Virus record (IMG/VR): IMGVR_UViG_3300044972_000601
Span: 1 to 64,000 of that record
Strand: one strand, 5' to 3'
Length of the DNA stretch: 64,000 nt
Origin: a virus
Under the pieces are notes generated by a model that did not search any database, was not told the origin of the DNA, and was given only the letters and a program-made list of their open reading frames with translations. Shown here piece after piece: positions 4,780 through 9,153 of this stretch (positions are counted from its first letter, which is position 1; every line of letters begins with the position of its first letter). A program made the position numbers and the translations under genes.

Positions 4780-5103
4780 ATGATGAAAACAAAACGAACT
4801 GCCCGTAAAGACTGCAACTACGTTATCTACGTAGCCGAGCACAACGGCTCTGCTTACATTGGACTCACCCGTAAGGGCACTGTAAGCATCGCCAAAGCTG
4901 TCAAAGAACGGTGGCGTAAGCATATCAGCAGAGCCCGGCACGAGGACAGAGACTGGGAACTGTACAAGTACATCAAATCGGGCAACTGGGACGGATGGAC
5001 TCATACAGTACTAGACATCGTGCGTGGCCGTGCTGAAGCGTATGCATACGAGCGTGAGCTTGTAAAGCATATGGAACCCGAGCTGAATGACCAGTACCTT
5101 TGA
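4780..5103 (+). CDS. GIY-YIG family nuclease
   Basis: VIY...AYIGLT...RWRKH...E...PELN motif order. Confidence 0.75.
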   Translation: MMKTKRTARKDCNYVIYVAEHNGSAYIGLTRKGTVSIAKAVKERWRKHISRARHEDRDWELYKYIKSGNWDGWTHTVLDIVRGRAEAYAYERELVKHMEPELNDQYL

Positions 5104-5168
5104 AGGGTTATTGACACACTCTTCAAATGGTGCTATAATACATACTTAAACAACAAAGGAGCGAAACG

Positions 5169-5456: not shown

Positions 5457-5734
5457 AACAGAATTACACCATGTACTGCTACAAGAAGGACCGCCGTTGC
5501 AAGACTGGCGAGAGACTGTTCTCCACCACAGTGTGGCAGGACCGCACACTGGAGGGATTGGAGCGGGAGATGCGTGACATGTCACGTGACCTATATCCGG
5601 GCACTGACTGGCGGTTTGAGTTCGTTCCCACAATGAAGACTGTGAAGAACTTGATGAGTGGCAAAGACATTCAAATCCCACACGACACACCTCGCTCGTG
5701 CGATCCGTCAAGCGAACTCTACTGGAGCATGTGA
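5453..5734 (+). CDS. Early hypothetical protein
   Basis: GGAGC SD, ATGA overlap. Confidence 0.75.
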   Translation: MKQNYTMYCYKKDRRCKTGERLFSTTVWQDRTLEGLEREMRDMSRDLYPGTDWRFEFVPTMKTVKNLMSGKDIQIPHDTPRSCDPSSELYWSM

Positions 5735-5898
5735 TGAAGAACGAGATTGAACGCTTGAACTTTGTCATTTGGGCAAAGACTCGTTTCCCGGGCTTTACCA
5801 CCAATCATGTACAGTATACCAAGGCCAATCGGGCATGGCGGGCTGTGGCACGTAAAGACCCTATGGTTGACAAGGTTATTAGATCCTGCTATAATTAA
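5734..5898 (+). CDS. Early hypothetical protein
   Basis: MKNEIERLNF; coupled start. Confidence 0.55.
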   Translation: MKNEIERLNFVIWAKTRFPGFTTNHVQYTKANRAWRAVARKDPMVDKVIRSCYN

Positions 5899-5929
5899 GG
5901 CTACAGTAAACAACTAAGGAGCGAAACTT

Positions 5930-6130
5930 ATGCGTACACAGACAACCCGACTGCTAGAGATGATGGACGAAGGTCTTATCTCAGCCCAAGCCATTGCTGA
6001 GATGGCTCTGGCCTACATGAGCGAAGACGATGTGGCAGACATGATGAGGGCCAATGACATCCTGGAGGAAGAGGATGATGGGCAACCCAGCGAATCCCAG
6101 GAGTGGGAATCGTTTGACGCAGACTGCTAA
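5930..6130 (+). CDS. Early acidic hypothetical protein
   Basis: Promoter plus GGAGCGAA SD. Confidence 0.8.
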   Translation: MRTQTTRLLEMMDEGLISAQAIAEMALAYMSEDDVADMMRANDILEEEDDGQPSESQEWESFDADC

Positions 6131-6140
6131 GGAGCACACT

Positions 6141-6515
6141 ATGACACGCTATTACGACGAACTGGCCGTTTACGAACGCAACGGATTTGATATCATTGTG
6201 GACAAATCATATGAAGACCTGGATCCCAAAGACTGTTTTGATGACGACTGCTTCAACATCAAAGAAATGTATTCCGACATCGAGTGCGGGAACCTTGACT
6301 GGTTCATGCTCCGTGTCCGAGTTATGGTTGAGAACATCGAACTCAGCTCGGAGTTCTTGGGCGGATGCTTATACAAAGACGCCCGCGAAGTCCTTACAGA
6401 CGGCACGGCAGAAGACCTCATCGACATGGCTCTGACTGAAGCCAAGAAGGATGTCTACAGGCTGTACAAGAAGTTCCAGGACATCAGCTGGGAACTTGAC
6501 GCACAATCGGTTTGA
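6141..6515 (+). CDS. Early hypothetical protein
   Basis: AAGGAG SD before ATG 6141. Confidence 0.75.
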   Translation: MTRYYDELAVYERNGFDIIVDKSYEDLDPKDCFDDDCFNIKEMYSDIECGNLDWFMLRVRVMVENIELSSEFLGGCLYKDAREVLTDGTAEDLIDMALTEAKKDVYRLYKKFQDISWELDAQSV

Positions 6516-6552
6516 TGCTATAATAAACACTTAAACACACACAGGAGCGAAG

Positions 6553-6888
6553 ATGCTAACCATTCAACAAGTGAATTCAGCTATCATGTTGCAGACATGG
6601 ACCAATGAGCAACTGACCAGCATGATTGATGCAGTCAAGTGGAATCGGGCTACATTGGCCAAGATCACCAAACGTAGCCTCAGCATTGGTGACAACGTGA
6701 ACTTCACATCCAGCAAGACTGGTGTGAATGTAACGGGTGTAGTGACTAAGATTGCCATCAAGTATGTCACGGTGAAGACTGTGCAGGGCTTGTGGAGAGT
6801 GCCAGCCAACATGCTGGAGAAGGTTGAAGAGGAGTGGACTCCGGACAATGCAGACTTCAACGACAGAGGTTCACGTCATCACTATTGA
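6553..6888 (+). CDS. Early hypothetical protein (SH3-like C-terminal pattern)
   Basis: Promoter plus GGAGCGAA SD; IGDNV...GVVTKI...WRVP. Confidence 0.75.
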   Translation: MLTIQQVNSAIMLQTWTNEQLTSMIDAVKWNRATLAKITKRSLSIGDNVNFTSSKTGVNVTGVVTKIAIKYVTVKTVQGLWRVPANMLEKVEEEWTPDNADFNDRGSRHHY

Positions 6889-6928
6889 TTGACAAGGATA
6901 GGTTCATGTGCTATAATAAGCACATGAA

Positions 6929-7143
6929 CAGTTAGATAAGAGTTAAAGGTTACCCACACCGTTAGGCACTGTAAGACGCGAGCACAGAGGGCACTCTACG
7001 CAATCTTACAGTGTATGAAATAGGAGCAAAAGCTCTGGAGATGCGGCGGAGCATGTGGGAAGTAATGACCGTCAAGGCCCGTGAGAGATGCGCTTACAGG
7101 TAGACATAGATTGACAATGGTTCCTTTAGTTCTTTTCTAACTG
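6929..7143 (+). ncRNA. Candidate ~215-nt multi-stem structured RNA
   Basis: 21-bp closing stem 6929-6949/7123-7143 with nested helices; own promoter; followed by tRNA. Confidence 0.65.
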
Positions 7144-7149
7144 AGATTT

Positions 7150-7224
7150 GCCGAGGTAGTCCTCTGGGAGGGCAACGGATTGTCTATCCGACCTAGGCGG
7201 GTTCGATCCCCGTCCTCGGCGCCA
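7150..7224 (+). tRNA. tRNA-Asp (GTC)
   Basis: GCCGAGG/CCTCGGC acceptor stem, TTCGA T-loop, encoded CCA. Confidence 0.85.
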
Positions 7225-7389
7225 TTCAAGGCATTCAGGTAGTCCCTGATGTAAGCCCAATCCATGAACTGTTGTTTTTTCACAACACCCAAAAAAAGAC
7301 CTGGTTGACATCAGGGTCTTTGCACAAGCTGTTGACGTTTTGGTGGAAGTACGCTATAATACATGCATACACACTAAAAAGGACACACA

Positions 7390-7644
7390 ATGCTTACACA
7401 ATGCATAGCAAAAGCAAAATTAGTTTTTAACAAAAAACTCAAAACTTATAAACTTGTTGTAGCGTTTAACGCACACAAAACAATCAAGCCAAACGGGGAC
7501 GTAAAATACAGCTTCCCTACGCAAGCAAAATGCAATTATGTAAGCGGAGATTTGCTTGCAGACAATTTGCAAAACGAGCTTGCAACTGTACTGCCTACAG
7601 TTTATGCAACATTACGCACAAACAGCGTAGAGTTTGTAGATTAA
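7390..7644 (+). CDS. Early hypothetical protein
   Basis: Promoter 7332, AAGGA SD. Confidence 0.75.
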   Translation: MLTQCIAKAKLVFNKKLKTYKLVVAFNAHKTIKPNGDVKYSFPTQAKCNYVSGDLLADNLQNELATVLPTVYATLRTNSVEFVD

Positions 7645-7749
7645 TACTAAAGTTAATGACCTTACCAGCTGTAGGGTTATTACAGCGCATTTGACATTTT
7701 AGCCAAAATGCGCTATAATAACAACTTAGCAACAAAGAAAGTAACAAAA

Positions 7750-7986
7750 ATGGGAATTTACGCAAGCACAGTTAACGCATATGCAGAATCTGCCGCTCGT
7801 GCGCAAGTGTACACTATGCAAAACAAATTGCAAAGCTACGGACAAACAGCACAGCAACTAAATGTTAGCAGTGCAAAGTTCCGCAGGGACATCGAAACTA
7901 AAAAAGCAAAGTTTATTGCAAAAATGCAAAAAGACAAAATTGCAAAAATGCAAGCAGAGATTGCACACTTGCAAGCAACAGTTTAA
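7750..7986 (+). CDS. Early hypothetical protein (basic, coiled-coil-like)
   Basis: Promoter 7691. Confidence 0.65.
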   Translation: MGIYASTVNAYAESAARAQVYTMQNKLQSYGQTAQQLNVSSAKFRRDIETKKAKFIAKMQKDKIAKMQAEIAHLQATV

Positions 7987-8003
7987 TTTTTAAGGAGCAA
8001 AAC

Positions 8004-8393
8004 ATGTTAGAAAACACTTTTACATTGCACACAAACGGACGCGGCTATTGGTCGCGCAAAGCAACTGCTGTAACTGTTGAGGCGCTAGACTTGCAGTACA
8101 TTACAAACGACAAGGACTTTGGCGAGCTGTGCATACACTTTAACACAAACGATTGGGACACAAAAACAGACGGGCTTATATACACAGACAAAAAGTTTAT
8201 GTCGGAACTGCGCACATACTTGCAAACTGTGGGCTTTACGCAAGCGGAAGCCGACGACGTTAGCTACAGCGAGCAGGGGATGCAAAGCGACAATTATGTT
8301 AGCTGTGACGTAGGGGCTGTGTTTATAGCGGGCTTAGAGCGTTTAGAGCCGGAGCATGTGCAAGCTGTGTATAAGGAGTGCGAGGATGTTTAA
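8004..8393 (+). CDS. Early hypothetical protein
   Basis: AAGGAG SD. Confidence 0.8.
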   Translation: MLENTFTLHTNGRGYWSRKATAVTVEALDLQYITNDKDFGELCIHFNTNDWDTKTDGLIYTDKKFMSELRTYLQTVGFTQAEADDVSYSEQGMQSDNYVSCDVGAVFIAGLERLEPEHVQAVYKECEDV

Positions 8394-8631
8394 CGTAACA
8401 TGCAAGCAACTAGACGACACACTACAATGGACGGGTGCTGTTGCAATTATTGCGGGCCATGTGCTTAACGCTGTAGGGCCTAGCATGTACCCCTACAACA
8501 TTGCAGTATTTGCTGTGGGCACGGTTGCGTTTTTGGCATGGGCCGTGCGTGTGCGCAACATGCCGCAAGCTGTTGTCAACCTCGTAGCATTAGCCATAGG
8601 GCTAGTAGGGTTATACAACGCTGTTGGTTGA
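8386..8631 (+). CDS. Small membrane protein (3 hydrophobic segments)
   Basis: Hydrophobic stretches; start uncertain. Confidence 0.65.
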   Translation: MFNVTCKQLDDTLQWTGAVAIIAGHVLNAVGPSMYPYNIAVFAVGTVAFLAWAVRVRNMPQAVVNLVALAIGLVGLYNAVG

Positions 8632-8683
8632 CGTTTTGGCTAAAGTGCGTTATAATACACACATAGCAACAAAGGAGCACACA

Positions 8684-8839
8684 ATGAGAGACGCAATACT
8701 TGCAAAGCTAGCGGAAGTAGAAGAGATGCTGTTAGAGGCAACGCTGGACGGCGAGCAACTGGCAGAGATGGCAGTGTTTGAAGAAGTGACTGGGGCGTTG
8801 AACACGCTGACAGAAGCGGTTGACTACTACGTGGATTGA
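8684..8839 (+). CDS. Early acidic hypothetical protein
   Basis: Promoter 8628, AAGGAG SD. Confidence 0.75.
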   Translation: MRDAILAKLAEVEEMLLEATLDGEQLAEMAVFEEVTGALNTLTEAVDYYVD

Positions 8840-8880
8840 CTGTATAATTAACACTTAAACAAACATTAGGAGCGAACCAA

Positions 8881-9153
8881 ATGGACAAATACGAAATTGT
8901 AGATATGTTTGAGCAAAACTTTATGACCCGCAGTGAAGGCGAGACCGGCGTAAAGAACTTGGAAAACGTGTGCGAGATCCTGGGCTACGGCACGGGCTTT
9001 ATGCGTAACCGTGCTATTGAGGAGTTCCTCACAGACAATCCGGGTGCTGTAGAAGCCCTGTTCCAGTTTATTACAGAGTGGGCCGTACGCAACTCCGACT
9101 GGCAAGCTGGCATGGAAGATGCTCTTGCTGAAGAGGGGTTGGTTGACGAGTAA
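8881..9153 (+). CDS. Early hypothetical protein
   Basis: Promoter plus GGAGCGAA SD. Confidence 0.8.
   Translation: MDKYEIVDMFEQNFMTRSEGETGVKNLENVCEILGYGTGFMRNRAIEEFLTDNPGAVEALFQFITEWAVRNSDWQAGMEDALAEEGLVDE

Follow-up and report, generated by a model that had tools for sequence, protein, structure and literature searches.

Evidence for a new structured RNA family linked with tRNA genes in uncultured giant phages of fresh water

A consensus promoter followed by some 215 nucleotides without a recognizable protein gene, and then by a tRNA gene, raises the question of whether the intervening DNA is itself a gene and, if so, whether its product acts as an RNA in its own right or only in cis on the transcript that carries it. 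We examined such a locus in a 64-kb stretch of viral DNA (here called the window) from the start of a 108-kb IMG/VR virus record, the completeness of which is estimated at 30%. The window encodes a tail sheath, a T4-type large terminase, a DnaB-like helicase and a gp15-like tail protein, and because of these genes it was attributed to a giant myophage; the nearest cultured relative, as judged by the terminase, was Pseudomonas phage PA5oct (54% identity). Viral loci that were compared with the window are labelled L followed by a number, giant-phage genomes are labelled G001 to G004 and RNA-library runs are labelled X1 to X4.

The original prediction described a perfect promoter at 6889-6917, with no credible ORF behind it and with a highly structured RNA in its place. 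The promoter was a 12/12 match, and transcription would start from it at approximately 6924 to 6926. All plus-strand ORFs inside the RNA had 30 or fewer amino acids; furthermore, the lengths of 31 homologues spanned all three classes modulo 3, and no frame remained open among them. The minimum-energy fold of 6929-7143 had an energy of -71 kcal/mol, compared to a mean of -54.2 (SD, 4.2) for shuffled sequences (z = -4.05), and none of 200 shuffles was as stable. The pairing of the two ends over 21 nt, with 18 Watson-Crick pairs, two G-U pairs and a single U-U mismatch, was found as claimed, and each of the nested helices listed in the prediction occurred in the minimum-energy fold. The features of the locus are collected in Table 1.

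Table 1. Positions of the RNA, its parts and the flanking elements in the window
Feature	Position	Strand	Basis or description
Sigma-70-type promoter	6889-6917	+	TTGACA, 17-nt spacer, TATAAT, TG extension; scores 12/12
Structured non-coding RNA gene, precursor form	6929-7143	+	Fold; covariance model (178.9 bits); covariation
RNA-library form	6932-7134	+	Self-closing 231-base X1 contig
P1, 5' arm	6929-6949	+	Pairs with 7123-7143
5' domain	6950-7066	+	Invariant columns; per-pair counts
P2, CCCACA/UGUGGG	6953-6958/7054-7059	+	Minimum-energy fold
P3	6959-6963/7045-7049	+	Terminal U-G pair, invariant in 31 aligned members
Hairpin P4-P5	6966-7014	+	Long helix 6966-6976/7004-7014
P6, variable-length hairpin, GGAGC/GCUCU	7023-7036	+	Helix 7023-7027/7032-7036
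3' domain	7067-7122	+	Fold and family alignment
P7	7067-7075/7111-7122	+	Includes GUCAA/UUGAC, 7071-7075/7111-7115
P8 hairpin	7077-7085/7093-7101	+	Includes GUGAG/CUUAC, 7081-7085/7093-7097
P1, 3' arm	7123-7143	+	Pairs with 6929-6949
tRNA-Asp, anticodon GTC, encoded CCA	7150-7224	+	ARAGORN; Rfam 40 bits, cut-off 29
Conserved 3' flank with small hairpin UCAGG (7235-7239)/CCUGA (7245-7249)	7228-7262	+	
Terminator-like hairpin AGACCUG/CAGGGUCU, short U tail	7298-7321	+	

The closing stem, P1, consists of an outer helix (6929-6936/7136-7143), the U-U mismatch (6937/7135) and an inner helix (6938-6949/7123-7134). This stem of approximately 21 bp ends at a three-way junction with two near-invariant G-C pairs, and the 5' domain includes the junction sequence UUA. 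An AGAG/CUCU helix was present at 6986-6989/6994-6997 in the minimum-energy fold, and the tip loop of the long hairpin, in P5, reads GNCG across the family. The conserved single strands include UAGG, of which AGG is conserved, and (C/U)AUGAA at 7014-7019, and a conserved GUAAUG at 7061-7066 leads into the 3' domain. The loop of P8 in the window is AGAUGCG (7086-7092); the corresponding loop reads RGACG in nearly all members and GAUG in the window. The shape of the 3' domain varies among members, and the hairpin with the RGACG loop is nearly always present; one member, L171, has lost it or never had it. The outer stem is missing from a sub-lineage of three loci (L010, L026 and L062).

Homologues were sought by using two flanking small genes as anchors, which led to approximately 100 related viral loci, and by iterated nhmmer searches for the element. 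About 21 distinct anchor-derived loci carried the element, always on the strand of the anchor genes and at a varying distance from them. A covariance model (R1) was built from six close members and used for realigning matches; it scored 178.9 bits on the window (E = 6.5e-60). A motif pattern made from invariant words (GGTTACC..A..CC..TAGG, a gap of 80 to 110 and GTAATG) was found in at least 120 IMG/VR viral contigs, and R1 gave 77 matches in 76 of 79 loci among the matches listed. The element was present as a single copy in each of five giant-phage records, four of which are 92 to 100% complete and have lengths of 320 to 353 kb.

Covariation in a homologue alignment had been proposed as a check of the prediction, and it was strong. 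In the 21 anchor-derived sequences, 94.5% of pair cells held standard pairs, versus 37 to 48% when the 3' partners were slid; compensatory changes were detected in 46 of 68 pairs, and none of 500 shuffles reached the observed values. Among 31 diverse members, 94.5% of cells again paired, versus 37 to 43% with partners slid, and 57 of 68 pairs were compensatory, including 19 of the 21 pairs of P1; these counts come from model-fitted alignments, a fit which favours the structure, and they rest on such alignments because RNAalifold recovered few pairs from plain MAFFT alignments. Single-sequence folds of divergent members were made independently and had the same architecture. The G-U pairs had been taken to favour structure in the plus-strand RNA, and the homologues bore this out: there were 191 cells with G-U or U-G and 19 with A-C or C-A, an excess of approximately 10:1, which indicated that the plus strand is the RNA.

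The prediction had been unable to assign the RNA to a known family, and we reached the same result. When Rfam 15 (4,227 models) was run on the window at the gathering cut-off, only tRNAs passed, and a search of 6700-7400 at E values of up to 10 found nothing that overlapped the RNA. No Rfam family matched the element in 19 homologous loci or, at E values of up to 10, in two divergent members. Among 185,579 genomes of bacteria and archaea, the motif pattern occurred at six places; R1 matched none of them at E values of up to 1, and all six were rejected as chance matches. A blastn search of GenBank phages with three family members returned the tRNA-Asp alone or nothing. Neither R1 nor a broader model of the 5' domain (R2), which recovered the positive controls G001 and G002, matched PA5oct, Sinorhizobium phage Phosso or Erwinia phage pEa_SNUABM_19, so that these three nearest cultured relatives are without the RNA. 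The lack of any cultured carrier is a limit in practice. No paper describing the family was found in the literature. Fragments of the present RNA may be contained in a 2023 catalogue of 8,495 candidate viral RNAs of 29 to 151 nt (PMC10690425). Overall, these results indicated that the element is almost certainly a real structured RNA gene of a new family and that this family is confined to uncultured freshwater giant myophages (approximately 320 to 350 kb), with one copy per genome.

Expression was examined in RNA libraries. Fifteen RNA runs contained part of the stretch, six of them with at least a fifth of its sampled words, and four lake-water metatranscriptomes from four studies were compared over 6000-8500. 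Short contigs with at least 99% identity to the RNA were detected in three of the studies. The X1 contig has 231 nt, covers 6932-7134 at a depth of 40.9 and differs from the window by one mismatch; the X3 contig (175 nt) covers exactly 6949-7123 and the X4 contig (151 nt) covers 6955-7099. Contig cover in X1 was absent over the flanking genes, which was not counted as silence of the flanks. These data provided fair evidence that the RNA exists as a discrete molecule whose ends lie near 6933 and 7133. It had been suggested that cleavage by RNase P at 7150 would release the RNA. Contigs did cover the RNA, but a cut at 7150 alone would be insufficient for the final 3' end, as the contig ends near 6932-6934 and 7132-7134 lie inside the closing stem.

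When read in the plus sense, the X1 contig runs from 7105 to 7132 and then from 6932 to 7134, and its first 30 bases are identical to its last 30 bases. If assembly with 31-letter words is assumed, this contig implies a closed cycle of 201 bases in which approximately 7132-7134 is joined to approximately 6932-6934. In two variant contigs (X1 record 5 and X4, the latter with a loose end at 7130), the 3' arm of P1 likewise ran straight into the 5' arm; on one side, each head-to-tail joint falls short of the 31 letters needed for a joint to be counted, and these two further joints are suggestive only. The joints are thus only a hint that the RNA is circular, and a reverse transcriptase that switches templates on an abundant linear RNA could also have produced them.

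The surroundings of the RNA in the window resemble those of a small transcription unit. The prediction had the RNA transcribed jointly with tRNA-Asp, and this was upheld by a scan of 5500-9000, in which no promoter-like or terminator-like call fell between the RNA and the tRNA. The tRNA starts 6 nt 3' of P1, and the two genes share one transcription unit. The hairpin at 7298-7321 is probably the end of this unit, just ahead of the next promoter at 7332-7360. In relatives without a tRNA, a flank of the type at 7228-7262 lies directly behind the RNA, and the unit was therefore regarded as a dedicated RNA operon of approximately 400 nt. The L026 locus has a clear hairpin at the corresponding position, with a run of U (TTTTATTTT) behind it. 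A palindrome that recurs upstream of early promoters (7295-7321, with similar sites at 5086-5112 and 7655-7681) had been proposed as an operator; it looks more like a terminator hairpin with which the preceding unit ends. The neighbouring genes are small, variable and without annotation, and searches of their proteins against Pfam and PHROGs gave nothing informative.

An identical consensus promoter, strong and of the host type, was present at an identical distance in 26 of 74 distinct homologues. By-eye reading detected a different conserved box in about 20 other members of the 74, consisting of GTTCTTTAAAAA followed by a TATAGT-like -10 element, and, in about ten of the 74, an extra structured module of approximately 95 nt between the promoter and the RNA. 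This module is conserved and is itself structured (GGCGATCC ... GGGTC ... GGAGACTCnGCC); it was located at L007:183-280 and L026:3321-3405 and also in L010, L062, L049, L117, L129, L165 and L173. The L007 copy is bordered by a repeat of the initial 10 nt of P1, which gives it the look of an insertion; in L026, L010 and L062, the module stands in place of the outer P1 arm. A separate observation concerned a perfect 11-bp inverted repeat (GTTCATGTGCT/AGCACATGAAC) at 6902-6929, around the -10 box of the RNA promoter. This repeat is also kept in L037, L051, L082 and L092 and could be a DNA-level control site.

The reading that we prefer, with a probability of about one-half for the picture as a whole, is of a stable, folded, trans-acting non-coding RNA that is cut from a tRNA-type precursor and for which P1 is the processing stem. 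The promoter, RNA and tRNA-Asp would be transcribed early as a single precursor, from which the tRNA would be freed by RNase P. The long closing stem would act as a processing signal, as do the helices on either side of ribosomal RNAs. The outer stem would be cut by a double-strand-specific activity, in its 5' arm near 6933/6934, so that only three weak outer pairs are left, and shortening of the 3' end as far as the inner helix at 7134 would then yield an RNA of approximately 201 nt (about 6934 to 7134). Such a cut near 6933/6934, together with trimming to 7134, would explain why the two ends are neighbours in what amounts to a four-base loop with a nick. Cleavage by RNase III alone would leave a 2-nt 3' overhang, which the inferred ends do not have, and extra trimming must therefore be assumed. 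The assignment of outer P1 as a processing stem is based on covariation, which maintains this part of the stem even though the RNA-library form lacks it; the sub-lineage of L010, L026 and L062, in which the outer stem is missing, speaks against the scheme. The adjacent ends may then be sealed by a ligase into a circle. The exonuclease-resistant product would act in trans through the invariant junction nucleotides and the RGACG hairpin loop, and its role may be to bind, as a platform or decoy, a phage or host factor whose own function most likely involves tRNA or translation.

The last part of this scheme can be extended to a stronger claim, namely, that a dedicated non-coding RNA of circular form is produced by giant DNA phages. 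P1 would then be a cassette for both processing and ligation: cleavage of the duplex and trimming would be followed by sealing of the juxtaposed ends into a small hairpin loop, and the resulting exonuclease-proof ring of 201 nt would be a scaffold or decoy during infection, linked to tRNA or translation. We consider this extension doubtful. The RNA-ligase profile PF09414 was present in G002 to G004, at approximately 150 to 200 kb from the RNA in each genome, and absent from G001; the latter genome, which is 98% complete and the closest to the window, contained no gene for an RNA ligase of this profile, RtcB or Ro60. The matching RNA_ligase frames (461 to 470 amino acids) are at G002:309228-309770, G003:325536-326078 and G004:293279-293821. 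A second RNA-ligase profile, PF09511, gave no matches in the genomes and none in its positive controls and is therefore uninformative, and RtcB was absent from the five giant-phage genomes, with positive controls. If the head-to-tail form were a true circle, the RNA would be a circular non-coding RNA encoded by a DNA phage, of which no published description was found.

The main alternative to a trans-acting RNA is that the element is a cis-acting leader of tRNA and early operons, which protects RNA polymerase from termination or from Rho, or which helps with tRNA folding, such that long untranslated tRNA arrays are transcribed to the end. The HK022 put RNA and the leader of ribosomal RNA are examples of antitermination and Rho protection. 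Most members head a transcription unit, an arrangement with which a cis-acting leader is also compatible: the majority lie directly behind a promoter or promoter-like box, tRNAs or genes on the same strand are always found downstream, and in several relatives, the next gene follows the RNA without a terminator between them. A simple scan for downstream terminators, which found them in 4 of 74 members, missed the clear terminator of L026 and is therefore uninformative. Furthermore, the RNA is inside the main tRNA cluster in G002 to G004. However, the unit in the window consists of the RNA and one tRNA and is then closed by a terminator-like hairpin, and the L026 RNA has a clear terminator and nothing else behind it. 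In addition, at least 11 of 74 members, by by-eye reading, are directly behind another tRNA and hence inside an operon, the contigs in RNA libraries represent short discrete species and not a leader joined to downstream RNA, and the fold is far more elaborate than those of known antiterminator RNAs. We therefore regard a leader function as unlikely.

The association with tRNA genes was examined across the family. A tRNA was present within 200 nt downstream in 33 of 71 distinct members, usually at a distance of 0 to 15 nt; 17 of these tRNAs were Asp(GUC), 7 were Glu and the remaining 9 were Leu, Ser, Lys, Tyr and Gln taken together. The link is thus frequent and not universal. Many members are located in clusters of 10 to 28 tRNAs, while in G001, as in the window, the RNA is apart from the main tRNA cluster, among early genes. 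The adjacent tRNA-Asp genes have three clearly different sequences across lineages, and the link is therefore old or recurrent, though not obligatory.

Several further elements were noted in these neighbourhoods. The tRNA-Asp that directly follows the RNA in L168, L131 and L115 has an unusual T loop (GGGGATCGTTACCCC, compared to the usual GGTTCGAATCC type). Downstream of the RNA in L037 (3680-3750), L051, L157 and L123, there are tRNA-like elements that were not called by ARAGORN. They combine an acceptor-like end that includes GCCA and a hairpin resembling a T arm with one or two hairpins whose 7-nt loop reads UUCGCAA. A conserved non-coding stretch, ATCATTTGTTTTGCTGATGTAAGCC ... TTCCGTTGAGCGTAGCAAATAGTGCG, is found approximately 0 to 120 nt downstream of the RNA in the tRNA-cluster loci L107, L174, L111 and L119 and is possibly a further structured RNA. 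In some tRNA clusters of giant phages, ARAGORN called tmRNA genes with the tag ANDEQFALAA, two of them permuted, at no more than 4 kb from the RNA.

The prevalence of tRNA-Asp and tRNA-Glu, the two commonest downstream neighbours, raises the idea that the RNA is directed at these tRNAs, much as a T-box specifier would be. The RGACG loop would offer an Asp codon (GAY) to the anticodon GUC and an invariant GAA would offer a Glu codon, so that the RNA binds, senses or shields tRNA-Asp or tRNA-Glu. Among the 31 aligned members, GAA was indeed invariant, and nearly all had GAC or GAU in the hairpin loop of the 3' domain. The conserved single strands contain approximately 15 different triplets, however, among which two matches are unremarkable, and as this coincidence is not significant, the codons in the loops make a weak rival only. 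The loop is also unchanged beside tRNAs for Leu, Ser, Lys or Tyr, the hairpin is missing from L171, the second loop (that of P5) is variable, as GNCG, and Rfam gave no T-box match. Direct recognition of these tRNAs is accordingly improbable.

The form detected in the libraries could also be accounted for by a self-processing ribozyme, in which the RNA cuts itself from the precursor and perhaps ligates its own ends. Such an activity would explain a head-to-tail contig, and a circular form without a ligase gene, as would be needed in G001, the near-complete genome closest to the window; the invariance of the junction nucleotides and of a U-G pair across the 31 aligned members would also fit this reading. 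Against this, no model of a self-cleaving ribozyme or group I intron matched at E values of up to 10, and the inferred ends are well away from the conserved core, at 12 to 16 bp along a plain helix. We consider self-processing to be very improbable. Finally, a DNA-level element (an origin, an operator or a miniature transposon with 21-bp terminal inverted repeats) might be proposed from the likeness of the arms to such repeats, the comparable folding of the minus strand (z = -4.44) and the varying position relative to the flanking gene, but it is scarcely credible given a single copy in every genome searched, P1 arms that covary (19 of 21 pairs) rather than being conserved, covarying internal helices, the 10-to-1 preference for G-U over A-C that marks one strand, the short contigs in RNA libraries and a window copy without target-site duplication.

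Structured RNAs of this size and degree of covariation are rare, and past finds of this kind have repeatedly opened new biochemistry. The present family has well over 100 members and is fixed as a single copy in giant phages, yet it is uncatalogued; in addition, its members stand behind a strong early promoter or within tRNA operons, and lake samples supply evidence for it at the RNA level.

Comparison with known systems disposed of several candidates. A riboswitch or T-box leader was rejected, as what lies downstream varies (tRNAs of seven identities, unrelated small genes or the next promoter) and no terminator abuts P1. A group I intron or small self-cleaving ribozyme was set aside for want of an Rfam match at E values of up to 10, and a miniature inverted-repeat transposable element was rejected on the basis of one copy per genome and covarying arms. 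Short words such as AUGGUAG and AAUGAC suggest a likeness to 5S rRNA and RNase P, which received no support from the Rfam models. 6S RNA (RF00013) is similarly about 200 nt long and abundant and has a long closing stem, but it is a rod with a central bubble, whereas the present RNA has a three-way junction and branched arms, and given this difference and the lack of an Rfam match, that reading was abandoned. Y RNAs (YrlA, RF02553) are alike in having approximately 100 to 300 nt and paired ends, and they are also found in some phages. The present RNA differs from them in being without an Rfam match and without a tRNA-like module. TROVE/Ro60 (PF05731) was absent from the five giant-phage records (four of them 92 to 100% complete), with positive Deinococcus and Bacteroides controls, and reverse transcriptase (PF00078), sought as a test for retrons, was absent from the same number of records, also with positive controls. 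Both the Ro60/Y RNA reading and the retron reading were rejected, since the required proteins were absent while the controls were positive.

A closer parallel for processing is provided by the RNase III stems of bacterial rRNA operons, in which sequences flanking a structured RNA likewise form a long duplex; in the present RNA, the outer duplex is under selection yet absent from the RNA-library form. tRNA-Glu and tRNA-Asp follow 16S and 5S rRNA in the rrn operons of Escherichia coli. The Rfam searches detected no sequence or model similarity between the RNA and any rRNA.

The nearest counterparts in setting, though not homologues, include the T4 RNAs rnaC and rnaD (species 1 and 2; 139 and 119 nt), two small stable RNAs without an assigned function that are encoded in the T4 tRNA cluster and released from a common precursor by tRNA-processing enzymes. 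With filters off, R1 gave only noise on the T4 tRNA region (best score, 9.3 bits) and no match on the whole of rnaC or rnaD, whose position was checked in NC_000866. The folds differ: rnaC ends in a tRNA-like T arm, which the present RNA is without, and the latter is larger than either T4 RNA, is closed by a 21-bp stem and is often preceded by a promoter of its own. GOLLD (RF01998) and ROOL (RF03087) are also complex, strongly covarying RNAs of phages and prophages with unknown function. They are approximately three to four times longer than the present RNA, and their models did not match it at the gathering score or at E values of up to 10. GOLLD and ROOL often adjoin tRNA genes in phage DNA. 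The present RNA can thus be placed beside T4 rnaC and rnaD, GOLLD and ROOL among the unexplained RNAs that are found in the company of phage tRNA genes, and one solved case among these tRNA-linked RNAs could explain a general theme.
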